The notes under the pieces were generated by a model. The model saw only the letters and a program-made list of their open reading frames with translations, did no database searches and had not been told where the DNA came from. A stretch of DNA of 64,000 nucleotides from positions 711,528 to 775,527 of the forward strand of contig CP011210.1 in assembly GCA_001029675.1 (NCBI GenBank), read 5' to 3'. This document shows positions 2,479 through 56,153 of the stretch, piece by piece (position 1 is the stretch's first letter; the number at the start of each line of letters is the position of its first letter). The translations under genes and the position numbers were made by a program. The DNA comes from Candidatus Beckwithbacteria bacterium GW2011_GWC1_49_16 (GTDB taxonomy: Bacteria > Patescibacteriota > Microgenomatia > UBA1400 > CG1-02-47-37).

Positions 2479-3373
2479 TGGATGAGGAGAGTTGTTGTTT
2501 CAAAGTAGAAAGGGCTTGGTCGATGGTAGACATGGTGACGCCAAGGTCACGCTTGAGCTTGGCGTTGGATAGCTTAAGATACTGTTGGCGGGGGCGGGTA
2601 TCGGTCTTGGCATAATCCTTAAAACTCCCCTGTTTAATCGTGCCGGGAAGATTAAAAGTAGTTTTAATTTTTTGAGCCAGATCAAAAGGGCTAAGCCCGC
2701 TTGAACCGACAAGGTGGTAGGTGCCGCTGGGTTTCTTGTCAAGAAAAACTTTGAGGGCGGTGGCGATGTCGTCGATAAAAGTCGGGATGATGGTTTGATC
2801 GGCAAACATGGGGTGGAGCGAATCGGTTTTCAGTTTGTCGATGATACTTCTGACCAAATCAAGTTTTGACGCAAAATGGCTTCGGAAAGGAAAGGCGATT
2901 CTGACGATGGCGGCTGGGGCGCCGGATTTTCTGACCGCTTCCTCGGCCATGAGCTTGGTCTGGCCGTACCATTCGATGGGATGGGTGGAGTCTTCTTCGG
3001 TGTACCCGCCAGGGGGCGGGTTTTTGCCGTCAAAAACAAAATCGGTGGAGACGTGGATAAGATAAAGCTTTCTCTCGGCGGCAACTCGAGCAATGTTTTG
3101 GCTGCCGACGACGTTGACCTGGTAAACCAATCCCTCCCTGTCACCTTTTTGCTGTGAAGCTTTAGAAACATCGGTAAAGGCAGCCAGGTGGATTAGGCCG
3201 TGGGCCTCGGGGTGGGCGGAAATGACTCTGTCTACTTGGCTTTTATCGGTAATGTCGATGCCGGTAGCAAGATCAAGGTTGACAAAGTCGTATTGAGAAG
3301 ACAAAAGTTCCACCACCCGGGAACCGACCAGACCGGAAAGGCCGGTGCCCAAGATAAGGGATTTGGCTGCCAT
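2465..3373 (-). CDS. rfbD: dTDP-4-dehydrorhamnose reductase (RmlD)
   Basis: 302 aa, N-terminal Rossmann GxxGxxG (ILGTGLSGLVGS), RmlD-like length; operon with rfbC/rfbB. Confidence 0.8.
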   Translation of the reverse strand: MAAKSLILGTGLSGLVGSRVVELLSSQYDFVNLDLATGIDITDKSQVDRVISAHPEAHGLIHLAAFTDVSKASQQKGDREGLVYQVNVVGSQNIARVAAERKLYLIHVSTDFVFDGKNPPPGGYTEEDSTHPIEWYGQTKLMAEEAVRKSGAPAAIVRIAFPFRSHFASKLDLVRSIIDKLKTDSLHPMFADQTIIPTFIDDIATALKVFLDKKPSGTYHLVGSSGLSPFDLAQKIKTTFNLPGTIKQGSFKDYAKTDTRPRQQYLKLSNAKLKRDLGVTMSTIDQALSTLKQQLSSSTKII

Positions 3374-3377
3374 CGGT

Positions 3378-3917
3378 TTACTCCCTCTTAAGTTGCCAAA
3401 AGTCTTCGCCTAAAAGATCCGAAGGGAGCCTCAACTCGTCGGGGTCTTTGGGGTTGAAGGCTTGGTTGGTGAAGTAAATCACCGAGCACGTCCCTTGCCA
3501 GAGGTTGGCAGCGCCGTGGGCGATGCCGGTGGGAACGTACAAGAGCTGGCTCGCGTGGGCGCCTAAAGTTAAACGCATCACTTGGTCCTTGGTGGGAGAA
3601 TCTTGGCGCAAATCTTTGAGCCCGACTAACAGCCGGTGGCGGGCCGGGACGTACCAAATGTCGTCTTGTTTTAAGTGAAGGTGAAAGGCTTTGACCGCGC
3701 CGGGCTGCATGTTGGAAATGCTAATTTGCCTGACTTCAAACTTAGGAAAGGTTTCCAGCGCGCCGGCTTTGATCCGCCCCAGTTCGGTAAAATCGCCGCC
3801 TTCGTCGTGGTAGAGCTTTAAGTCAATCAACTTGACGCCGTCGATGACCGGTTTGCCGCCGTACTCCTGGACGGTAATTTGGGGGTGGTACTGGGAAGAA
3901 ATGTTATCTAGTTTCAT
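3378..3917 (-). CDS. rfbC: dTDP-4-dehydrorhamnose 3,5-epimerase (RmlC)
   Basis: 179 aa cupin; ...QISISNMQPGAVKAFHLHLKQDDIWYV... matches RmlC core. Confidence 0.85.
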   Translation of the reverse strand: MKLDNISSQYHPQITVQEYGGKPVIDGVKLIDLKLYHDEGGDFTELGRIKAGALETFPKFEVRQISISNMQPGAVKAFHLHLKQDDIWYVPARHRLLVGLKDLRQDSPTKDQVMRLTLGAHASQLLYVPTGIAHGAANLWQGTCSVIYFTNQAFNPKDPDELRLPSDLLGEDFWQLKRE

Positions 3918-3923
3918 AATTTT

Positions 3924-4901
3924 CTATTTTACCATTTTTAAAGGCTGCCACCAGTCCCGATTGTTTCGGTACCAGTCAACGGTTTGTTTTAAGTAAATGT
4001 CAAAGCTGTAGCGGGGTTGGTAGTTTAACTTTCTTTGAGCTTTGGACCAATCCAGCGCATAGCGGCGATCATGAGCTGGGCGGTCTTTGACAAACTCTAT
4101 CTGTGACTCAGGCTCACCCATTATTTTTAAAATCTTTTTGACTACGGTTAGATTGTCCAGGTCTTCGGTCAGGCCGCCGATGCAGTAAGTGGCGCCGGCC
4201 TGACCTTTTTTTAACACCTGTTCGATGGCCCGGCAGTGGTCTTCGACGTAGAGCCAGTCTCTAACGTTTTTGCCGTCGCCGTAGACGGGGACTTTTTTGC
4301 CTTCGATGAGGTTGGTGACTGTTAAGGGAATGAGCTTTTCGGGAAACTGGTAGGGGCCGTAGTTGTTGGAGGTGTTGGTGATGGTGGTTTTTATACCAAA
4401 AGTTTTGTGGTAGGCCCGAATCAAGTGATCGGAAGCCGCCTTGGTGGCGGCATAGGGGCTGTTGGGGCGAAAGTGACTTTTTTCCGAGAATTTTTTGTTC
4501 GACCCCAGCGCCAGCGAGCCGTAGACTTCATCGGTGGAGATATGGTGAAAGTGGCTTAACTGGTGTTTAACGGCGGCAGCCAGTAGCACCTGGGTACCGA
4601 CGACGTTGGTGACCACAAAGACCGCCGGGTTGTCGATGGAGCGGTCGACGTGAGATTCAGCGGCAAAGTGGACGACGATGTCAACCCCGGCCATGGCCTG
4701 GTCGACAACTTTAGGGTCGGCAATATCGCCTTTGACAAACTGGTAGCGGGGGTTGCCCTCGAGCGCCTTGAGGTTGGCAAGATTACCGGCGTAAGTTAAT
4801 TTATCGAGATTAACTATCTGGTCATTAGGATGATTCTTAACCCAGTAGTGGATAAAGTTTGAACCGATAAAGCCAGCGCCACCGGTGACTAAAATTTTCA
4901 T
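3924..4901 (-). CDS. rfbB: dTDP-glucose 4,6-dehydratase (RmlB)
   Basis: 325 aa; MKILVTGGAGFIGSNF..., YAATKAASDHL (YxxxK) SDR-extended motifs. Confidence 0.9.
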   Translation of the reverse strand: MKILVTGGAGFIGSNFIHYWVKNHPNDQIVNLDKLTYAGNLANLKALEGNPRYQFVKGDIADPKVVDQAMAGVDIVVHFAAESHVDRSIDNPAVFVVTNVVGTQVLLAAAVKHQLSHFHHISTDEVYGSLALGSNKKFSEKSHFRPNSPYAATKAASDHLIRAYHKTFGIKTTITNTSNNYGPYQFPEKLIPLTVTNLIEGKKVPVYGDGKNVRDWLYVEDHCRAIEQVLKKGQAGATYCIGGLTEDLDNLTVVKKILKIMGEPESQIEFVKDRPAHDRRYALDWSKAQRKLNYQPRYSFDIYLKQTVDWYRNNRDWWQPLKMVK

Positions 4902-4910
4902 ATGCTTATT

Positions 4911-5768
4911 TTACCAGCTACCGGAGGCTCCGCCACCACCAGAAGAGCCGCCGCCAAAACCGCCGGAAGAACCCCCGGAAGAACCACCGGAAGAAAAACC
5001 GCCTCGGGAAGACCACCAAGAATTGGCCAGACCCCTTTTTTGTCGAGTGCGGTAGTTTTTGGACAAGATAAAGTCTAAAAGCAAACCCAAGAGGCCGATG
5101 AAAATTCCGCCGACTAGGGAAAAGAATAAAAGACCTAAGACAAAACCTAAAGCCCCACCGGGCCAAAAACGCTTAGTCCGGCCCAAAAAGGCCAAGGCAT
5201 AAAGCGACAAAATTATCAAAACTAAGGGCAAAAAGTTAAAAGTCGACGCACCCGCTTCGGCTGGCTCATCAAAAGCGCCAGGATCTTGGGATAAAACTTC
5301 AATGATGGCGGTAACTGCCGCAATGACTCCGGCGTCGTAGTCACCGACTTTAAATTGAGGGGTAATTTCGCTTCTTATGATATTTCCCGCCCGAGAGTCA
5401 GTTAAAATCGCCTCGGCGCCGTAGCCGACCTCGATTTTTAACTGTCGGTCGTCAACGGCAATTAAAAGCAAAACGCCGTTGTCTTGACCCTTTTTGCCGA
5501 TGCCCCATTGTTCAAAAAGCGCCACGGCTACGTTTTCGACCGTATCGCCTTCAAGGCTTTTGAGGGTTACCACCGCGATTTCGTAGCCGCTGGCGGCTTC
5601 AAAAGCCGTCAGGTCGTTTTCTAACGTGGCTTTGGTGTCTTCTGACAGGACTTGGGCAAAGTCGTTGACATAACCTGCTGGTTGGGGAAAATCCCTGGCC
5701 AAAACTTGCCCCGCCAGAATTACCCCGCCTAAGATCAAAGCCAAACTCACCTTTAATAGCTTTTTCAT
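4911..5768 (-). CDS. TPM-domain protein (YgcG-like) with Gly/Ser-rich C-terminus
   Basis: 285 aa; signal peptide, TPM phosphatase-like domain, TM, then GGSSGG repeats. Confidence 0.65.
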   Translation of the reverse strand: MKKLLKVSLALILGGVILAGQVLARDFPQPAGYVNDFAQVLSEDTKATLENDLTAFEAASGYEIAVVTLKSLEGDTVENVAVALFEQWGIGKKGQDNGVLLLIAVDDRQLKIEVGYGAEAILTDSRAGNIIRSEITPQFKVGDYDAGVIAAVTAIIEVLSQDPGAFDEPAEAGASTFNFLPLVLIILSLYALAFLGRTKRFWPGGALGFVLGLLFFSLVGGIFIGLLGLLLDFILSKNYRTRQKRGLANSWWSSRGGFSSGGSSGGSSGGFGGGSSGGGGASGSW

Positions 5769-7069: not shown

Positions 7070-8809
7070 TTAATCCGGTTCGAAACGGTCGCGGTGCCGG
7101 CGGTTTCTGTCGGTGACGGTGACTTGTTCTTTTTCAACCAAGAAATTGCCTAAAACGACGTCATCAATGTTGGTTCCCATGAAGCAATTGTAAGCCTCCT
7201 CTGGGGTACAGACGATGGGTTCGCCCCGGACGTTAAACGAGGTGTTGATCAAGACGGCGCAGCCGGTAATCTTTTCAAACTTGTTGATGATGCCCCAGTA
7301 AAAGGGGTTTTGCCGGCGGTTGACCGACTGGATGCGGGCGGAGTTGTCGACGTGGGTGACGGCGGGAATATCTTTGGTTTTGACCTGGGCCACCAAAAGC
7401 ATGTAAGGGGTGGGGCGGTCGATGTCAAAATAATCGCTTAAGTATTCCTCCATTACCACCGGGGCAAAGGGACGGAAGTCTTCTCTGAATTTGATCTTCA
7501 GGTTGACCCGGTCTTGGTTTTCGGGGTTTCTGGCGTCGGCTAAAATCGAGCGGTTGCCCAAGGCCCGCGGGCCCCACTCCATCCGACCGGCAAAGATGCC
7601 GACGACGCGTTGGGCGACCAATTTGGCGGCTATGACCTGGAAAAGTTTTTGTTTATCGTTAAAGTGGCGGTAGGTGACGTCTTTGGCCTGAAGCATACTT
7701 TTGATGTCACTTTCGGAAAATTGGGGGCCAAAGTAAGCGGTGTCAAAGACAAAGTTCCTTTTTTTATTCAAGAGGCAATTTTCGATATAGTAGGCGACCC
7801 CCAAAGCGCCGCCGGCGTCACCGGCTGCCGGCTGGACAAAGAGGTTTTTGAAAGGGGTTTCCCTGATGATCCGGCCGTTGGCGACGCAGTTTAAGGCCAC
7901 GCCTCCTGCCAGACATAAATTTTCCTCCCCGGTTTCTTGACAAAGACTCTTGGCCATTTTGAGAATCACCTCTTCGGTGACCACCTGGATACTTTTGGCT
8001 ACATCTTCATAGTGTTGAGTTAAAGGGGCTTCGGGGTCGCGGACGCCTGACTTACCCAAAAGCTTGATGAAACGGTCGTTAATCATTCTCAAACCGTACT
8101 CATAGGAAAAATACTTAAGGTTCAACTTAAAACTGCCGTCGGCTTTGATGTCGATGAGCTTATCTTTGATCAGCTTAACGTAGCGAGGCTTACCGTAAGG
8201 AGACAGCCCCATGAGTTTGTACTCGCCGGAGTTAACCTTGAAGCCGCAATAGTAAGTGAAAGCGGTGTAAAGCAGGCCCAAAGAATGGGGAAAGTCGATC
8301 TGGTGGGTGAGACTGATTTTATTCCCCCGGCCGACTCCCTTAGTGGCGGTGGCCCACTCGCCGACGCCGTCGATGGTCAAAATGGCAGCGGATTTGAAAG
8401 GAGAAACCAGGAAAGCGCTGGCGGCGTGGGACAAGTGGTGAGGAATAAAAACGACGTCGCCATCCCAGTTTAACTCCTGCTGGATTAAATATTTGATCCA
8501 GAGTTTTTGCTTGAGCCAAATGGGCATGGCCTTAAGAAAAGAAAACAAACCCTTGGGAGCGGTAGCTAAATAGGTTTTTAACAAGCGCTCAAACTTGATA
8601 AAAGGCTTTTCGTAGAAACCGACATAATCAAGATCTTTGACCTTGATACCGGCTTCTTTGAGACAGTAATCGATGGCGTTTTTGGGAAAAGATTCATCGT
8701 GTTTAACCCGGGTGAAGCGTTCTTCCTGGGCGGCGGCTAAAATTTTGCCGTCTTTTAACAGAGCTGCGGCCGAGTCGTGGTAAAAACAGGAAATACCCAG
8801 GATGTACAT
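7070..8809 (-). CDS. carbamoyltransferase (NodU/CmcH family)
   Basis: 579 aa; MYILGISCFYHDSAAALLKDG... Kae1/HypF-like N-domain plus C-terminal carbamoyltransferase domain. Confidence 0.85.
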   Translation of the reverse strand: MYILGISCFYHDSAAALLKDGKILAAAQEERFTRVKHDESFPKNAIDYCLKEAGIKVKDLDYVGFYEKPFIKFERLLKTYLATAPKGLFSFLKAMPIWLKQKLWIKYLIQQELNWDGDVVFIPHHLSHAASAFLVSPFKSAAILTIDGVGEWATATKGVGRGNKISLTHQIDFPHSLGLLYTAFTYYCGFKVNSGEYKLMGLSPYGKPRYVKLIKDKLIDIKADGSFKLNLKYFSYEYGLRMINDRFIKLLGKSGVRDPEAPLTQHYEDVAKSIQVVTEEVILKMAKSLCQETGEENLCLAGGVALNCVANGRIIRETPFKNLFVQPAAGDAGGALGVAYYIENCLLNKKRNFVFDTAYFGPQFSESDIKSMLQAKDVTYRHFNDKQKLFQVIAAKLVAQRVVGIFAGRMEWGPRALGNRSILADARNPENQDRVNLKIKFREDFRPFAPVVMEEYLSDYFDIDRPTPYMLLVAQVKTKDIPAVTHVDNSARIQSVNRRQNPFYWGIINKFEKITGCAVLINTSFNVRGEPIVCTPEEAYNCFMGTNIDDVVLGNFLVEKEQVTVTDRNRRHRDRFEPD

Positions 8810-50496: not shown

Positions 50497-50961
50497 ATGG
50501 TTCAAGTAAATTTTCATTTCACCAGCGAAGGCTTAAAAGAGCTTAAAAACGAGCTGAGGAAGTTAACCGAAGAGAAACGGCCGCGGCTGATTAAACGAGT
50601 CACCGTGGCCAGAAGCCACGGGGATTTGTCGGAAAACAGCGAGTACTCGGCGGCACGCGAGGACTTGGCGTTTGTGGACGGCAGGATCGAGGAACTTGAG
50701 GGTCTGATTGCCAAAGCCAAAATAATCAGAAACAAAGGCGGCAACCACGAAGTCAAACTCGGGTGCCGGGTAACGCTTAAAGTGGGCCGGAAAGAGGAAA
50801 CCTTTGAAGTGGTGGGCGAATGGGAAGCCGACCCTTTGAAACAAAAAATCTCCCACACCTCGCCTTTGGGCCAAGCCTTACTGGGCAAGAAGAAGGGTGA
50901 CAGGGTGGAAATTGACGCCCCGGCCGGGAAGCTGACTTATCACATTCAAAAGGTCCACTGA
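50497..50961 (+). CDS. greA: transcription elongation factor GreA
   Basis: coiled-coil N-domain + FKBP-like C-domain (GDRVEIDAPAGKLTYHI); start set at MVQVNF... Confidence 0.85.
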   Translation: MVQVNFHFTSEGLKELKNELRKLTEEKRPRLIKRVTVARSHGDLSENSEYSAAREDLAFVDGRIEELEGLIAKAKIIRNKGGNHEVKLGCRVTLKVGRKEETFEVVGEWEADPLKQKISHTSPLGQALLGKKKGDRVEIDAPAGKLTYHIQKVH

Positions 50962-50962
50962 T

Positions 50963-50990
50963 TTGACAGCGGCGTTTTAATTGCTATAAT
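50963..50990 (+). promoter_or_regulatory. sigma70-like promoter (TTGACA-16-TATAAT)
   Basis: ttgacagcggcgttttaattgctataat, consensus hexamers. Confidence 0.55.
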
Positions 50991-50999
50991 TCCCTCAAC

Positions 51000-51065
51000 A
51001 TGAACTGGCAAACAGCAGACACCAAGAAAAAGACAACCGCTCAAAGGAGGGGTGTGTCTGCGTAG
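51000..51065 (+). CDS. putative 21-codon leader peptide MNWQTADTKKKTTAQRRGVSA
   Basis: short ORF immediately after promoter, three consecutive Lys codons, followed by terminator; hypothetical. Confidence 0.25.
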   Translation: MNWQTADTKKKTTAQRRGVSA

Positions 51066-51086
51066 TGTTTTAAATTTAAACAAAAT

Positions 51087-51113
51087 GCAAACCCCTCCAA
51101 CGAGGGGTTTTTT
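51087..51113 (+). terminator. intrinsic terminator / attenuator hairpin
   Basis: caaacccctc-caac-gaggggtttttt; alternative pairing with ggagggg at 51046..51052. Confidence 0.6.
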
Positions 51114-51124
51114 AGTGGTGAAAT

Positions 51125-51919
51125 ATGTCCAATAACAACTTAATGCGAATGTTTGAAAATCGGTTTTTGCCGATTGCTGCTATGTTAGTTAATAATCACT
51201 CTCTGTCTGTGGATATTATTAATAAACCCAAGTTTGTAGATAGCATTAAAAATCTAGAAGAGTTGGTGCTGGATCGTAGATTTGATGCCATAGCAACTGA
51301 AGTATTTTCGCGGAAAAATTACCAGTCAATGGCGGAAAAAATAAGGTCGATAGACACTTTGTACGAAATTTTTCTAGAAACAAAGGCAGTGCTTGATTTG
51401 CTTGAGAACAAACAAGAGTTAAAAAACAATTTCCATCTGATGAGAGACTACCAAACTGCAAAAATGGAGGGGGAAATGGGGAGTTTTGACCGACACTCAA
51501 AAGTGGCTTTTGTGGGTAGTGGCCCATTTCCTTCAACCGCGATTGCCTACCATCGAACCTTTGGCTGTCAGATAACTGGCGTTGATTACAATCCTGAAGC
51601 AGTAATGCTGGCTGATAAAATGTTAAATCGTCTTGGACTCGAAGGATCGATTTGGTCAGTTTCCTGTGCTGGAGAAGATTTTGACTACTCCGGATTTAGT
51701 CATGTGGTTTTAGCAGGGATTGCCGAACCTAAAGAAGAAATTCTTGAGCAAATTTATCAAACCACCAATAGCAACATAAGAGTTGTGTCCAGAACCACAG
51801 ATGGGCTAAGACAGTTCTTCTACAAACCAGTAAAAGAAACAGGAAATTTTATACAGGTAGATAAAGTTGTAGACGAAAATAATATTTTCTACTCGATACT
51901 ACTAGTACCTAAAAATTAG
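51125..51919 (+). CDS. nicotianamine-synthase-like (NAS/CntL-family) protein
   Basis: 264 aa; KVAFVGSGPFPSTAI matches NAS signature (KVAFIGSGPLPLT). Confidence 0.6.
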   Translation: MSNNNLMRMFENRFLPIAAMLVNNHSLSVDIINKPKFVDSIKNLEELVLDRRFDAIATEVFSRKNYQSMAEKIRSIDTLYEIFLETKAVLDLLENKQELKNNFHLMRDYQTAKMEGEMGSFDRHSKVAFVGSGPFPSTAIAYHRTFGCQITGVDYNPEAVMLADKMLNRLGLEGSIWSVSCAGEDFDYSGFSHVVLAGIAEPKEEILEQIYQTTNSNIRVVSRTTDGLRQFFYKPVKETGNFIQVDKVVDENNIFYSILLVPKN

Positions 51920-51923
51920 CGTT

Positions 51924-52961
51924 ATGAACAGGTTAAAAGTGGTGATTATTTTTGGCGGCAGATCAGTGGAACATGAGGCTTCGGTAATCTCTACTAGGTC
52001 AATCATGAAGTTTATTAATAGGCAAAAATATGAGGTGATCCCGATTGGTATTACTGTTGGGGGTCTCTGGGTGGAGACTAACGAGGCCGATAAGTTTTTA
52101 AACTCTAAGAAAAAGCTTCTGGTTGATAGAGGTAGTCGATTTAATCAGATTCCGAAAATATTACAGAGTCTACCTAAAAATACTGTAGTTCTCCCTTTAA
52201 TGGAGTGTACTACAGGTGAAGATGGGGTGATTCAGGGATTTCTAGAGCTTGATGGGCTGCCTTATGTCGGCACCGGCGTTTTTGGTTCGGCTTTGTGTAT
52301 TGATAAAGTTAAACTCAAAGAAATTCTTCAGTTTCATAATCTACCGGTAGCGCCGTTTTACTGGTTTAGAACTACAGACAAGCTAGATACTAAATTAGTA
52401 AATAACTTTCCATTATTTGTAAAACCAGCTAGATTAGGGGGCAGCATAGGGATTTCGAGAGTGAACAACAATGATGAACTTCAAATAGCTGTTAGGCTGG
52501 CTAGCCAATATGATAATAAAATCATTGTTGAAAACGGTCTGGATGATATTCGCGAAATAGAGGTTTTAGTGGTGGGCAACAACTCCCCTAGGTGCTTTAT
52601 TATTGGTGAGGCTATAACTAACAACAAATTTCAAGATTATGAAGCAAAAAGCCAAGAACAAAGACAACTAGTAGCGCCGGCAAAATTAAGCACCAAAATT
52701 AAAAACAGAATTAAAAGAGCGGCGATAAAAGCTTATCAAGTTAGCAACTGCGCTGGTTATGCTAGAGTTGATATCTTTCTACGAAAAGAGGGGGATAAGT
52801 TTTGGGTTGGTGAAATAACTACTAAGCCAAGCTTTAATAAAACTGAAAGCTACCTAAAGGCTGCCGGGAGGTTAGATGAATATCAGGGATTAATTAACCA
52901 GCTAATCCAACTGGCTGTTGAAATGTGGCAGAAAAAACAGCGGCTAAAAACTAGTTTATAA
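51924..52961 (+). CDS. ddl: D-alanine--D-alanine ligase (ATP-grasp)
   Basis: 345 aa; KVVIIFGGRSVEHEASVISTRSI N-terminus and ATP-grasp core. Confidence 0.75.
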   Translation: MNRLKVVIIFGGRSVEHEASVISTRSIMKFINRQKYEVIPIGITVGGLWVETNEADKFLNSKKKLLVDRGSRFNQIPKILQSLPKNTVVLPLMECTTGEDGVIQGFLELDGLPYVGTGVFGSALCIDKVKLKEILQFHNLPVAPFYWFRTTDKLDTKLVNNFPLFVKPARLGGSIGISRVNNNDELQIAVRLASQYDNKIIVENGLDDIREIEVLVVGNNSPRCFIIGEAITNNKFQDYEAKSQEQRQLVAPAKLSTKIKNRIKRAAIKAYQVSNCAGYARVDIFLRKEGDKFWVGEITTKPSFNKTESYLKAAGRLDEYQGLINQLIQLAVEMWQKKQRLKTSL

Positions 52962-52968
52962 TAAGATT

Positions 52969-55275
52969 ATGTTCTGGGCGGATAAACTGGCTAGCGACAT
53001 CGTCAAATCGGGCAAACATAAACCCTTGTGGGTGGACGACATGAAGACGCCCTCGGGAAGAGTCCACGTGGGGGCGTTGCGCGGGGTGGTGGTTCATGGT
53101 CTTGTTTACCAGGCTTTGATCAAAGAAGGGCAAAAAGCGACTTATTCGTATGTCATCAACGACATGGACCCGATGGATGGCTTTCCTAACTATCTGCCGA
53201 TTAAGTTTAAAAAGCACATGGGAGAACCGTTGTTTAAAATCCCCTCTCCGGAAAAGGGTTACCAGTCAATGGGACAAGCTTACGGCCAGCAGTTTATCGA
53301 CACTTTTAACCGGTTGGGATTTAAACCCAAGATTATCTGGTCGAGCCAGTGGTATAAGCAGGGCAAGTTTGACGCGGTGATTAGACAGGTGCTTGATCGG
53401 GTGGATTTGGTCAGAAAACTTTACCATGATATCTCCGGCTACGATAAGCCGAAAAGTTGGTATCCGTATCAGGTGATTTGTCCCCAGTGCGGCAAGGTGG
53501 GGACGACCATCGCCACCTCCTGGGACGGGAAAAAGGTCGGCTACGAGTGCAAAAAGGATTTGGTCGTCTGGGCCGAAGGCTGCGGCCACAAAGGCGAGGT
53601 CGAGCCGAAGGGACTAGCCGGCAAACTGATGTGGAAAGTAGACTGGGCGGCTCACTGGAAGGTAATCGGGGTGACGGTTGAGGGCGCCGGCAAAGACCAC
53701 ATGAGTCAAGGTGGTTCGTATGATTTATCCAGCGCCATTTGCGAAAAAGTTTTAGATTATCCCAAACCGTTTGCCTTTCTTTATGAGTGGTTTTTGGCTA
53801 AAGGCGGCAGTAAGATGAGCTCGTCGCGGGGCATCGGGGTGTCGGCGAGCCAAATGGCCGAGACTCTGCCGCCGGAAATCTTGCGCTTTTTGCTGGTCAA
53901 AACTCCCTACCGTAAAGCGATTATCTTTGATCCGAATAACAACGAGACGGTGCTCAATCTCTTTGACGCCTATGACCAGGCGGCTGAAGCCTACTTTAAC
54001 AAGAGCGACCCGCTACTCGCCCGGGTATTTGAGTTGTCTCAACCGAGCGGCAAGACCCCCAAAAAAATATTTTTACCTCGCTTTCGCGACGTGGTTAAGT
54101 TGTTGCAAGACCCGAAAGTGGACGAAAAAGAAAAGTTTGCCGAGATTAAAGGAGGCAAGTTGACGCCGGCAGAAGAGCGCGAACTTGAAAGGCGAGTTAA
54201 GTACGCCAAGATTTGGCTTAGTGAGTACGCGCCGGAAGAACAAGTGTTTCAGATGACCAAAATTCTGCCGGAGACGACAGCCACGCTCTCGGCTGAACAA
54301 AAAACCTACCTTCAAACCATCGTCAAAGTTTTAGATAAGGACTGGCAGGACGCTGACCAGTTGCAACAGGAGCTGTATCAAACAGCCAAAAAAATGAAAC
54401 TGGTCGCTGGTGACGCTTTCGGAGCGATCTATATTTCCCTTCTCAATAAAAGCCACGGCCCCAAAGCCGCCTGGCTGATTTTAGACGAAGGAAAAGACAA
54501 GGTTGCCAACAGGCTTAAGCAGGCAGCCGAGTACCAAGTCGCAGAGGTAAGGGTCGCCGAGTCCAAATACCCGGTAATCAAAGCGCCTAAGTTTGTCAGC
54601 ATTAATCCTGACATGGCCAAGGCTTACCCGTCGATTAAAGTGGCTATGGCTGTCATCCGGGGAGTTAATAATAAGGTCGATAACGACCGGTTCGTCACTT
54701 ACCGCAATCAAGTAGTTGATAGCCTTAACGGGATTACCTTAGACGACATTAGCGCTTCAAGGAAAATCAGCTCCTACCGCAAAGCGATTCGGGAAAGCGG
54801 CATCGACTGGCACAAAAGAAGGCCGACGATGGAGGCGTTACTGCGGCGCGTGGCCCAAGGGAAGCAGCTTTACTGGATTAATCCCCTGGTGGATATCGGC
54901 AACTTGATGGCGATGAAACACCAAGCCAGCCAGGGAGTCTTTGACCTTGACCAAGTTAAACTACCGGCGATAATGAGAAAATCAGGAGGCGGCGAAAAGG
55001 TTTTGATGCTGGGAGATACCAAACCGATCACTTTGCAAAAAGGCGAGATTTGTTATTTTGATAGACAAGGCCCGTTTATCGTCGATCTGTGCTGGCGCGA
55101 CGCTAAGCGGACCGGGGCGACCGAAAAAACCCGCGACGTGATGTTTTTATCCGAGGCGGTTTATGACATCAGCCGGAAAGACCTTGATGACGTTCTGGAC
55201 GATCTTATCGCCACGGTGACCCGCTACTTGGGAGGTAAAGTCGAAACAGCTGGTATTGTTACGGCAAACAAGTAA
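52969..55275 (+). CDS. lysK: class I lysyl-tRNA synthetase fused to C-terminal B3/4-like domain
   Basis: HIGH-like HVGALRG, KMSKS-like KMSSSRG, Zn-binding CPQCG...C; C-terminal ~230 aa with VDIGN...FDLD...GE...D..GP pattern of PheT B3/4 domain. Confidence 0.8.
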   Translation: MFWADKLASDIVKSGKHKPLWVDDMKTPSGRVHVGALRGVVVHGLVYQALIKEGQKATYSYVINDMDPMDGFPNYLPIKFKKHMGEPLFKIPSPEKGYQSMGQAYGQQFIDTFNRLGFKPKIIWSSQWYKQGKFDAVIRQVLDRVDLVRKLYHDISGYDKPKSWYPYQVICPQCGKVGTTIATSWDGKKVGYECKKDLVVWAEGCGHKGEVEPKGLAGKLMWKVDWAAHWKVIGVTVEGAGKDHMSQGGSYDLSSAICEKVLDYPKPFAFLYEWFLAKGGSKMSSSRGIGVSASQMAETLPPEILRFLLVKTPYRKAIIFDPNNNETVLNLFDAYDQAAEAYFNKSDPLLARVFELSQPSGKTPKKIFLPRFRDVVKLLQDPKVDEKEKFAEIKGGKLTPAEERELERRVKYAKIWLSEYAPEEQVFQMTKILPETTATLSAEQKTYLQTIVKVLDKDWQDADQLQQELYQTAKKMKLVAGDAFGAIYISLLNKSHGPKAAWLILDEGKDKVANRLKQAAEYQVAEVRVAESKYPVIKAPKFVSINPDMAKAYPSIKVAMAVIRGVNNKVDNDRFVTYRNQVVDSLNGITLDDISASRKISSYRKAIRESGIDWHKRRPTMEALLRRVAQGKQLYWINPLVDIGNLMAMKHQASQGVFDLDQVKLPAIMRKSGGGEKVLMLGDTKPITLQKGEICYFDRQGPFIVDLCWRDAKRTGATEKTRDVMFLSEAVYDISRKDLDDVLDDLIATVTRYLGGKVETAGIVTANK

Positions 55276-55558
55276 GTTTATGTTTCCGATTTTGTTTTTT
55301 ATCAGTCTAGGAATTTTTTTAGGAGTTTTTCTCCAGTTTAAACGCCGGCGGATTATTGCCTGGGTAGATAAAGTGGTAGTATTTACCGTTTACATTTTAT
55401 TGTTTCTTCTAGGAATAAACATAGGTGGTAACGAAGAAATTGTTGCCAGCCTAGGCACTATTGGATTTCAGGCACTGCTAATAGCATTGGCGGGAGTCGC
55501 TGGTAGCATACTCTCTGCCTATATTTTGAGTAGGCTTATATTCAACCATGAAAACTAG
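55256..55558 (+). CDS. LysO/YbjE (DUF340) family membrane protein, N-terminal piece
   Basis: 100 aa, 3 TM. Confidence 0.5.
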   Translation: MLRQTSKFMFPILFFISLGIFLGVFLQFKRRRIIAWVDKVVVFTVYILLFLLGINIGGNEEIVASLGTIGFQALLIALAGVAGSILSAYILSRLIFNHEN

Positions 55559-56153
55559 CTTGCAGTTGTTTGCCGTTTTTATTCTTGGTCTAATTTTAGG
55601 TTATTACGAATTGGCTCCGGAATTTTTAATCAACAATGGCCTAGTGGAATACGTTTTATACGTGATGCTGTTTTTTGTGGGCGTATCTATGGGGCAAGAT
55701 AAAAAAGCTTGGGGTGTTGTAAAAAAACTTAAGGCAAAAATTTTCTTGGTACCGGCAGGTACTGTATTAGGCACATTTATAGGGGCAGTTGTGGTAAACA
55801 CTTTGATTAAGGACTTGCGGTTTATCGAGGTGGTAACCGTTGCCGCTGGCATGGGTTACTATAGTCTACCTAGCGTAATTTTAAATCAGCTTGGATTTGA
55901 AGTTTTGGGCGTTTTGGCACTACTGACTAACTTATTCAGAGAAACTATTACTTTATTAACCACGCCAATTCTGGCTAAATATTTTGGTAAGCTTTCCCCT
56001 ATCGCGGCAGGAGGGGCAACTACATCTGATGTAACACTACCGGTAATTGTTGAATTTACTGGTAAGCAATACGGGGTAATCGCTATTTTTAACGGAGTGG
56101 TGATAACTATTTTAGTACCGTTTATGGTTACGGCTTTGGCTTCATTGCTGTAA
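55548..56153 (+). CDS. LysO/YbjE (DUF340) family lysine-exporter-like membrane protein
   Basis: 201 aa, 6 TM, DUF340-like. Confidence 0.55.
   Translation: MKTSLQLFAVFILGLILGYYELAPEFLINNGLVEYVLYVMLFFVGVSMGQDKKAWGVVKKLKAKIFLVPAGTVLGTFIGAVVVNTLIKDLRFIEVVTVAAGMGYYSLPSVILNQLGFEVLGVLALLTNLFRETITLLTTPILAKYFGKLSPIAAGGATTSDVTLPVIVEFTGKQYGVIAIFNGVVITILVPFMVTALASLL

Follow-up and report, generated by a model that had tools for sequence, protein, structure and literature searches.

The genome of Candidatus Beckwithbacteria bacterium GW2011_GWC1_49_16 carries, between greA and an operon that includes a lysyl-tRNA synthetase (LysRS) gene, a leader region of about 115 nucleotides (nt) whose structure and putative regulatory role are the subject of this report. 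The region lies within a stretch of 64,000 nt of contig CP011210.1 that was analyzed as a whole and is called the window here. The leader consists of a promoter, a short open reading frame (ORF) with a cluster of lysine codons, segments capable of alternative base pairing, a hairpin that we call P2, and an intrinsic terminator. It is followed by genes for a nicotianamine synthase (NAS)-like protein, a member of the D-Ala-D-Ala ligase (Ddl) family, a class I LysRS (lysK), and a LysO-family membrane protein. Coordinates are provided in Table 1.

Table 1. Leader elements and adjoining genes, with positions counted from the first nucleotide of the window
Feature	Position	Strand	Remarks
greA (Pfam GreA_GreB_N/C)	stop codon TGA 50959-50961	+	upstream neighbor of the leader
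Promoter, sigma-70 type	50963-50990	+	TTGACA 50963-50968, 16-nt spacer, TATAAT 50985-50990; extended -10 TG 50982-50983
Leader ORF, MNWQTADTKKKTTAQRRGVSA, 21 codons	ATG 51000 to TAG 51063-51065	+	AUG 9 nt past the -10; no Shine-Dalgarno sequence
Regulatory Lys codons AAG AAA AAG (codons 9-11)	51024-51032	+
Region 1, C-rich, AGACAACCGCUC	51031-51042	+	pairs with region 2 in the minimum-energy fold
Region 2, GGAGGGG	51046-51052	+	5' strand of antiterminator; complement of 51092-51098
Hairpin P2 (GCGU..GUUUU / AAAC..AUGC)	51060-51088	+	inside the 2:3 helix; leader stop codon 51063-51065 in its 5' arm
Intrinsic terminator	51089-51113	+	region 3 CCCCUC 51092-51097, loop CAAC, region 4 GAGGGG 51102-51107, U6 51108-51113
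GUG mini-ORF, MVKYVQ-stop, 6 codons	51115-51135	+	GUG 8 nt past region 4; ends with TAA at 51135; overlaps ATG 51125
NAS/CntL-like, 264 aa, first structural gene	51125-51919	+
Ddl family	51924-52961	+	NF002528, 287.5 bits (cutoff 262)
Class I LysRS (lysK) fused to B3_4 domain, 768 aa	52969-55275	+	TIGR00467, 353.5 bits (cutoff 147.55)
LysO-family (PF03956) membrane protein, two overlapping ORFs	55256-55558 (100 aa), 55548-56153 (201 aa)	+	overlap or abut lysK

A perfect TTGACA-N16-18-TATAAT sequence occurs only once in the 64-kb window, where 0.04 occurrences are expected, and a promoter score of 12/12 is reached only once between 46 and 64 kb. Our scan of the window also found a single perfect-stem terminator that has a U run, an upstream copy of its 3' arm, and a position directly before a gene. 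The stem of this terminator, in its extended form (AAACCCCUC/GAGGGGUUU), occupies positions 51089-51110, and CCCCTCC at 51092-51098 is the exact reverse complement of region 2. From the end of the terminator to the first structural gene (ATG 51125) is a distance of 12 nt. There is no other terminator for greA, and the hairpin will also end greA transcripts. Because A3 flanks the stem on its 5' side and U6 on its 3' side, the terminator is called on the minus strand as well.

A preliminary description of this region had reported the consensus promoter just after greA, the 21-codon ORF with AAG AAA AAG some 10 nt past the -10 element, the segment GGAGGGG complementary to the 5' arm of a terminator hairpin upstream of the first gene, and class I LysRS and LysO-type genes downstream. 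Each of these observations holds: the promoter also has an extended -10 TG, the ATG lies at 9 nt, the complementarity is exact, the hairpin is a stem followed by U6, and the two genes match TIGR00467 and PF03956. To that description we add the pairing of region 1 with GGAGGGG, which completes a four-segment scheme, as well as P2, the predicted leaderless or near-leaderless nature of the ORF, and a probable Shine-Dalgarno (SD) role of the terminator 3' arm.

Leaders homologous to this one were sought by three routes: the neighborhoods of homologous proteins, a DNA pattern, and a look-up of homologues of one downstream gene that made no use of the pattern. Together these routes established at least 17 distinct members in about 11 lineages of the candidate phyla radiation (CPR)/Microgenomates, including Beckwith-, Davies-, Woese- and Gottesmanbacteria; individual loci are referred to below by L numbers. 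Homologues of the NAS-like protein number five, too few for wide sampling of the leader, and two of their loci, L001 and L002 (NAS-like gene plus ddl, proteins 60% identical), carry the leader, with promoter, ATG 9 nt past the -10, MNLIVLDTKKKNNHSMEGLVFSV, GGAGGGG, and CCCCUCCAAGGAGGGG-U6. Ten contigs on which the NAS-like protein is identical are uninformative, because their leader is identical as well. The pattern scan of species-representative genomes gave 15 matches, of which six are clear homologues (L019, L023, L024, L025, L028 and L029) from Davies-, Woese- and Gottesmanbacteria and other Patescibacteria bins. In metagenome sequences the pattern scan added L044, L091, L106, L111 and L129; there, the R/Y degeneracy of the pattern let in many poly-G/poly-C matches, true members are at least 6 of the approximately 119 loci listed, and the family is under-sampled. 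The pattern-free look-up, conducted with a protein of about 350 amino acids (aa) that is encoded behind some leaders, found the leader at 3/3 distinct loci (L149/L150, L151 and L152/L153). Viral contigs had no match to the leader.

All members have a promoter, with a -35/-10 pair at the equivalent position, an AUG 8-14 nt past the -10, no SD sequence, an open ORF of 21-37 codons, a hairpin of variable sequence, and a terminator. The distance from an in-frame Lys-Lys pair to the G-rich segment is 12-19 nt in every member. The leader is always on the same strand as a lysine-related operon, 12-35 nt upstream of it, and no promoter of the operon's own lies between terminator and start codon. The gene upstream of the leader is greA in the window and in L023, L028, L149 and L151, and is not greA in L001, L002, L019, L025, L044 and L091. 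A covariance model finds one copy per locus and a single one in the 64-kb window, and it has no match in L003, L004 or L154-156. The reverse strand of every member scores 22-46 bits with this model. The leader is quasi-palindromic, in that regions 1 and 3 are C-rich and regions 2 and 4 are G-rich, and the reverse-strand matches are echoes of this design. The member at L152 (518-686, the same as L153) is a longer leader of 37 codons in which a GC-rich hairpin has been inserted between two Lys-Lys pairs; because U6 also follows the 1:2 hairpin of this leader, ACCCUCUUGAGGGCG, the member may have two tandem terminators. The preliminary description had also proposed to look for a Lys-rich upstream ORF and hairpin before lysK in relatives, and these are indeed present in Woese-, Gottesman- and other Microgenomates.

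Several statistics bear on whether the leader ORF is coding. The start ATG is invariant across the aligned leaders, and frame 0 is open in 17/17. In the 14 leaders that were tabulated for stop codons, frame 0 has none, and frames +1 and +2 have 31 and 20; L149, L151 and L152 also lack stops in frame 0. Given the roughly 0.076 stops per codon in the other frames, a run of 22 open codons would arise with a chance of about 0.18 per lineage. An in-frame Lys-Lys pair occurs in all 17 leaders, compared with 6/17 and 1/17 in the other frames, and the cluster takes forms such as KKK, KKAKK, KKSKK, KKEKK and KQTKK. Lysine is the commonest residue of the leader peptides (13.8%), and beyond the cluster the peptide is poorly conserved. 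Between the ORFs of L001 and L002 there are five differences, 5/5 of them synonymous, and the stop codon changes from TAG to TAA between L019 and L029. Counted modulo 3, the distance from ATG to GGAGGGG takes every possible value, such that region 2 is found in every codon phase; therefore, RNA and not peptide is conserved downstream of the Lys codons. Nonetheless, the frame stays open to a stop codon 7-15 nt past the G-rich segment. Because the ATG of the window's leader lies 9 nt past the -10 and has no SD sequence, translation of this ORF would have to be leaderless or nearly so.

The RNA contains four recurring segments: a C/U-rich region 1 directly past the Lys codons, region 2 (GGAGGGG), region 3 (CCCCUC(C)), and region 4 (GAGGGG) followed by U6-7. 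The folding of both conformations, another check that the preliminary description had suggested, was conducted with ViennaRNA. The unconstrained minimum-energy fold of the window's leader RNA (120 nt) is the terminator state, which combines 1:2, P2 and 3:4 at -37.1 kcal/mol (z = -4.3 against dinucleotide shuffles); the antiterminator state has -34.5 kcal/mol. The 5' part was masked up to 13 nt past the last Lys codon, as a stand-in for a ribosome whose A site holds that codon. Nascent RNA masked in this way and extending up to region 3 forms 2:3 around P2 in 14/14 pattern-type members, as well as in L149 and L152, which agrees with the earlier proposal that stalling frees GGAGGGG for an antiterminator. 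The attenuation geometry that had been read from the Lys codons is also supported across the family, given the positions of the last Lys codon (12-19 nt before region 2) and of the stop codon (7-15 nt after it). When region 1 is masked in full-length RNA, the terminator and antiterminator states differ by 0-4.5 kcal/mol, and because the two are so close, kinetic order would decide the outcome. Under constrained folding, every member shows the logic of 1:2/3:4 versus 2:3. Region 1 is predicted to be an anti-antiterminator, and a ribosome stalled at the Lys codons would cover it.

Comparative evidence for these helices takes different forms. In the terminator, 7/7 stem pairs are kept in 16/16 aligned members, and the U6-7 tract is invariant. 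P2 is not alignable by sequence and was assessed by per-sequence folds and shuffle z-scores instead of by covariation; a hairpin at its position is present in 17/17 members, with unrelated sequences and a mean z of -2.2. A C/U-rich segment precedes region 2 in every member and becomes UCCC where region 2 is GGGAGAGG. L149 and L151 exhibit a compensatory variant, in which region 2 is GGAGAGG and pairs with CCUCUCC, a sequence created by a changed terminator loop (CCCCUC-UCCG), and in which region 1 is UCCC and pairs with GGGA. L152 has a further variant of region 2, GAGGGCG.

The anatomy of the leader, its conservation, its frame statistics, the lysine-related content of the genes behind it, and the thermodynamic feasibility of its alternative states are thus directly established. 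The characteristics of the attenuator class that can be sought by sequence and folding are all found, namely a short ORF, a Lys cluster, a terminator, a mutually exclusive antiterminator, an appropriate codon position, and cognate genes. We consider it quite probable that the leader attenuates transcription in a ribosome-mediated, lysine-specific way, as leaders of the trp/his/pheST type do, and that its ORF is leaderless or near-leaderless. Because the leader recurs before lysine genes in related uncultured lineages, a lysine-starvation switch is the most likely function. From these data we also infer where transcription starts, that the ORF is translated, that ribosomes stall and transcripts terminate, and that an SD sequence takes part.

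The mechanism that we propose is as follows. Transcription would start at the strong promoter, at the AUG of the 21-codon ORF or a few bases before it, and translation would begin without an SD sequence. Since the terminator separates this promoter from the operon, the operon can be transcribed from it only by terminator read-through, and the outcome would be set by the position of the leading ribosome when RNA polymerase reaches the terminator. With plentiful charged tRNA-Lys, the ribosome would reach the stop codon (51063) and cover region 2, region 3 would then pair with region 4 before the U6 tract, and transcription would end near 51113. With scarce charged tRNA-Lys, the ribosome would stall on AAG AAA AAG, covering region 1 and leaving region 2 free just outside its footprint. 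The free region 2 would pair with region 3 once the latter is made, presumably helped by P2, which would bring the two together. Region 4 would then remain unpaired, and the polymerase would read into the NAS-like gene, ddl and lysK. If the leader were not translated at all, the RNA would form either 1:2 with 3:4, or a nested 1:4/2:3 structure; in both, region 4 would be in a helix beside the U tract, and termination would be expected. Finally, the unpaired region 4 is probably an SD sequence for the GUG or AUG located 7-8 nt farther on, and translation of the first gene would therefore be switched on together with read-through.

The last step is suggested by a conserved start codon past the terminator. 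In 16/17 members, an RUG codon (usually GUG-G) is located 0-1 nt past the U tract and 7-8 nt past GAGGGG. It is in frame with the first gene at four loci, and most of the others open ORFs of 2-13 codons that end at or over the ATG of the first gene; at L091, L044 and L151, the mini-ORF and the gene start overlap as ATGA. The first gene of the window has no good SD sequence of its own, and region 4 is paired in the terminator state. Region 4 is therefore probably a sequestered SD sequence for the RUG codon, hidden in the terminator state and exposed upon antitermination. The conserved UGG past the U tract was also considered as a T-box-like contact with the tRNA acceptor end, but its position does not fit, Stem I is lacking, and no Rfam family matches; it is better explained as the start codon plus a G.

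The same observations could be accommodated by attenuation of translation only, as in ermC or the mycobacterial cysteine small ORFs (sORFs): helix 3:4 would hide the SD sequence GAGGGG, stalling at Lys codons would open it, and termination would be minor or absent. Consistent with this idea are the RUG codons, which either share the frame of the first gene or are coupled to it, the lack of another good SD sequence in the window, and the mycobacterial precedent. However, the hairpin is a textbook intrinsic terminator with a GC stem of 6-9 bp, a 4-nt loop and an invariant U6-7, and SD sequestration needs no U tract of fixed length. Control of translation alone is consequently improbable in our estimation; it is compatible with a transcriptional mode, and we take it as a component of the transcription attenuator proposed above.

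We regard as somewhat less probable still the idea that the choice between 2:3 and 3:4 is made without translation, by a ligand- or protein-binding RNA such as a small lysine riboswitch or a LysRS-binding leader, with the ORF being incidental. The ORF lacks an SD sequence, segments 1-4 and P2 are conserved as RNA, and some aminoacyl-tRNA synthetase genes, for example, thrS, are autoregulated through their leaders. On the other hand, the AUG is invariant, the ORF behind it has stayed open through insertions and deletions in about 11 lineages, and all members keep the in-frame Lys-Lys pair. Hardly any conserved nucleotides are unpaired and thus available for a binding pocket, and P2 is free to vary in sequence and length. 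A LysRS-binding operator is further disfavored in that the same leader precedes class I LysRS, class II LysRS, and operons that have no LysRS in the sampled DNA (L029 and L019). In addition, the lysine riboswitch (RF00168) and T-box (RF00230) models do not match positions 50700-51400 even at E<=10.

An independent, trans-acting small RNA (sRNA) gene, whose location before the operon would be secondary, is very unlikely, even though a perfect promoter, a transcript of about 115 nt, and an efficient-looking terminator would suit one. A terminated attenuator RNA can act in trans, one example being rnTrpL (PMC6614838). However, for an sRNA the alternative pairing and the ORF would be superfluous, and the constant strand, the single copy per locus, the spacing of 12-35 nt to a lysine-related operon, and the lack of an operon promoter between terminator and start codon all point to a role in cis, to which a trans role might be added but which it would not replace. 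Chance juxtaposition of a greA terminator, an operon promoter, and a meaningless short ORF, which might be suspected because greA has no other terminator and is the upstream gene at five of the loci, is scarcely credible, given that the same leader occurs where the upstream gene is not greA and that the comparative data refute such a reading, with all sub-features conserved. A role of the hairpin as a mere greA terminator was rejected, as many members are not preceded by greA.

A number of findings nevertheless weigh against a lysine-specific transcription attenuator. First, part of the Lys enrichment stems from an A-rich tract that yields some Lys in every frame, and Lys codons number 47, 31 and 25 in frames 0, +1 and +2. 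The distance of 8-14 nt from the -10 to an AUG lacking an SD sequence implies a 5' untranslated region of 0-7 nt, and leaderless translation in these CPR hosts is itself something that the leaders only suggest. Second, several members form 2:3 already in the nascent fold without a ribosome. In several members, the unmasked fold is the nested 1:4/2:3 structure, with the 3' strand still abutting the U tract; termination without translation would then depend on the less certain 1:4 helix, although it is plausible. Third, alignment of 16 leaders with MAFFT and RNAalifold revealed no formal covariation for 2:3 or 3:4, and only the terminator was recovered. The lack of covariation follows from regions 2, 3 and 4 being near-invariant, in part because the search pattern fixed them, and the support for compensatory pairing comes only from the register-shifted variants. 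Fourth, the distribution is patchy. The leader is absent at the NAS-like loci L003 and L004 (50% and 46% identity), as well as at three loci (L154-156) that encode a protein family of about 220 aa (FamB) and a DapF-like protein; the leader is therefore lineage-restricted and is not obligatory for FamB genes. Finally, the operon in the window includes genes for Ddl and a LysO-type exporter, whose induction by lysine starvation is not obviously sensible, and the presence of the NAS-like gene is also unexplained.

The genes from the NAS-like gene to LysO probably form one operon, in that they overlap or are separated by gaps of 8 nt or less. The two LysO ORFs overlap or abut lysK, and for this reason they probably belong to the same operon as lysK; for the shorter one, the match is confined to the first 80 positions of the profile, at its N-terminal end. 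A promoter-like site (10/12) at 54947-54974 inside lysK might drive LysO separately. Farther downstream in the window are NIF3, HD and SerRS genes. The NAS-like/ddl pair and the LysO genes have a GC content of 37-40%, compared with approximately 50% for greA, lysK and other flanking genes. Both in the window and in L152 (2885-5191), the class I LysRS has the B3_4 domain (PF03483) at its C-terminus; this domain has the fold of the editing region of the PheRS beta subunit.

Genes of lysine metabolism recur behind the leader. Class I LysRS is found in the window and in L023, L044 and L152/L153, and class II LysRS in L028, L149 and L151 (TIGR00499, 544-555 bits, cutoff 427.6). The leader also precedes genes for aspartate kinase (L029 and L024), DapF-like proteins (L019, L028 and L025), DapE/ArgE-family M20 deacylases (L023, L044, L129 and L149-153), and a GGACT protein (L019). 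The occurrence of two non-homologous LysRS classes behind the same leader family points to lysine, and not to one protein family, as the common signal. The class II LysRS of L149 is a 703-aa fusion with an HDIG domain.

The window and Woese-/Gottesman-type contigs share a syntenic frame that consists of greA, the leader, a two-gene cassette, LysRS, HD, in some cases Ham1, SerRS, a methyltransferase, and SecA. Within this frame only the cassette and the class of LysRS vary. The slot between leader and LysRS that holds the NAS-like gene and ddl in the window is occupied in relatives by the gene of the ~350-aa protein (FamA) plus an M20 deacylase gene, or by FamB plus a DapF-like gene, and the cassettes look like exchangeable inserts in a conserved frame.

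FamA genes are located at L023 690-1751, L129 391-1452, L044 2118-3203, L149 6001-7041, L151 6001-7053, and L152 698-1741. The gene always comes first past the Lys leader, and a gene for a DapE/ArgE-like M20 deacylase comes next; the copy in L023 is split into two ORFs (177 + 154 aa). Our scans found no Pfam or NCBIfam match for this family, and two database homologues carry PF13527 (GNAT). Together with the deacylase, the FamA protein could constitute a pathway for acyl-lysine or acyl-diaminopimelate (acyl-DAP). FamB genes, which also have no domain assignment, are located at L019 4741-5400 (minus strand), L028 1572-2288, L025 807-1613 (minus strand), and L154 4568-5230. They are always followed by a gene for a divergent DapF-like protein that scores below the TIGR00652 cutoff, and in L019 additionally by a gene resembling GGACT-fold gamma-glutamyl(amine) cyclotransferases. 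All of these genes are candidates for lysine salvage. The leader at L091 is near-identical to that of L001 and has a different first gene (4273-5310), whose 345-aa product contains a CX3CX2C motif (CAANCSFC, radical-SAM-like) and matches nothing in Pfam or NCBIfam. The CPR contig L154 (394-1869, 1866-2903 on the minus strand, 3043-4512, and 7206-8561) encodes two aspartate kinases, homoserine dehydrogenase, class II LysRS, FamB and a DapF-like protein. It has no Lys leader, and the promoter of each gene is simply of the plain TTGACA type; lysine and aspartate-family genes can thus cluster without the attenuator being present.

To our knowledge, gene regulation in the CPR/Patescibacteria is almost unexplored, as the hosts are uncultured and few recognizable regulators are present in their genomes. 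A conserved lysine sensor that can be read from sequence offers a direct handle on it. For lysine, we know only of riboswitches and T-boxes so far, and the leader described here would extend leader-peptide attenuation both to this amino acid and to a deep bacterial radiation. On balance, we believe that it is the first recognized amino acid attenuator of the CPR and the first lysine-specific leader-peptide attenuator, that its sensory ORF is leaderless or nearly so, and that its terminator doubles as an SD-sequestering hairpin. As part of the same proposal, it would define a lysine "ribulon" that links uncharacterized cassettes (the 350-aa protein with M20 deacylase; the 220-aa protein with DapF-like protein, and GGACT at one locus; the NAS/CntL-like protein with Ddl; and the CX3CX2C protein) to the acquisition or salvage of lysine in organisms that are believed to have no amino acid biosynthesis. 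The leader also suggests that leaderless translation works in the CPR. It can serve as a functional label, in that genes behind it are predicted to serve lysine supply, among them the unusual NAS-like/Ddl pair of the window and several families that have neither a Pfam nor an NCBIfam assignment. In this way, the question of how CPR cells with reduced genomes obtain lysine or DAP becomes a testable set of candidates. The interchange of class I and class II LysRS behind one leader represents non-homologous displacement of a synthetase inside a conserved regulatory and syntenic frame.

In comparisons with known RNA families, Rfam searches of the whole window at the gathering threshold identified one tRNA only and no leader family, and a tRNA/tmRNA scan of the window found one tRNA-Glu, far from the leader. 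A more permissive search of positions 50700-51400 (E<=10) gave no relevant family either: Phe_leader (17.6 bits, E=3.6, gathering threshold 55) aligns to the terminator only, and the rli38 and rimP matches are also terminator-only alignments far below threshold. Our literature search, whose coverage was incomplete such that a prior description is possible, found no lysine leader peptide and no CPR/Patescibacteria attenuator.

Two types of lysine-related RNA leader are functional analogues only. The lysine riboswitch (L-box) and the T-box that precedes the class I lysK gene of Bacillus cereus switch terminators in response to lysine and to uncharged tRNA-Lys, respectively, and they are cis-acting RNAs that control lysC, dap genes or LysRS, much as proposed for the present leader. 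However, they contain no ORF and are large aptamers or Stem I/T-box structures, the L-box having a five-helix junction and about 180 nt, and the leader here has about 115 nt. It has no room for Stem I, and its conserved UGG is located past the terminator and not in an antiterminator bulge. The translational attenuators of ermC and ermB resemble the mechanism proposed here, in that a ribosome stalled within the leader ORF changes the folding of a hairpin that otherwise masks a downstream SD sequence. Stalling in that case depends on a drug and on the peptide, not on codons and tRNA, whereas the peptide here is not conserved beyond its Lys cluster.

A closer parallel is provided by leaderless polycysteine sORFs of mycobacteria, where ribosome stalling serves to sense cysteine and exposes a downstream ribosome-binding site (RBS) (Canestrari et al., bioRxiv 10.1101/834739). 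The mycobacterial sensory sORF is leaderless and forms the first cistron, as is predicted for the ORF here. In both systems, the ORF contains a run of codons for a single amino acid, whose metabolism is controlled in mycobacteria and would be controlled here, and several loci have the same design, termed a "ribulon"; the stalled ribosome prevents formation of an RBS-sequestering structure in mycobacteria and would do so here. The leader differs in that it would sense Lys instead of Cys, in a hairpin that is also a canonical intrinsic terminator with U6-7, and in its phylum.

The classical attenuators (trpL, hisL, pheL, leuL, thrL and ilvL, represented in Rfam by Trp_leader, His_leader, Phe_leader and others) share with our leader a promoter-proximal ORF with a cluster of cognate codons, segments that form 1:2/3:4 or 2:3, a terminator just before the first gene, and cognate biosynthetic genes downstream. 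They have no sequence similarity to it. Unlike them, it would sense lysine, for which our search of Rfam and the literature found no leader, and its hosts are CPR/Microgenomates and not Proteobacteria, Actinobacteria or Firmicutes. Also in contrast to them, it has no SD sequence, an ORF 8-14 nt past the -10, an extra hairpin (P2) inside the antiterminator, and near-repeats of regions 1 and 3 and of regions 2 and 4.

The leader also parallels attenuators of synthetase genes. The pheST operon of Escherichia coli is controlled by the pheM leader peptide, and hisS/hisZ in Bacilli have His-leader peptides (PMC2965389). As proposed here for lysine, the synthetase gene in these systems is induced by stalling at codons for its own amino acid in a leader ORF. 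Our leader differs from them in amino acid and phylum, and in that the synthetase gene is the third gene, behind a variable two-gene cassette. It also differs in that both non-homologous classes of LysRS are found behind a single leader family.

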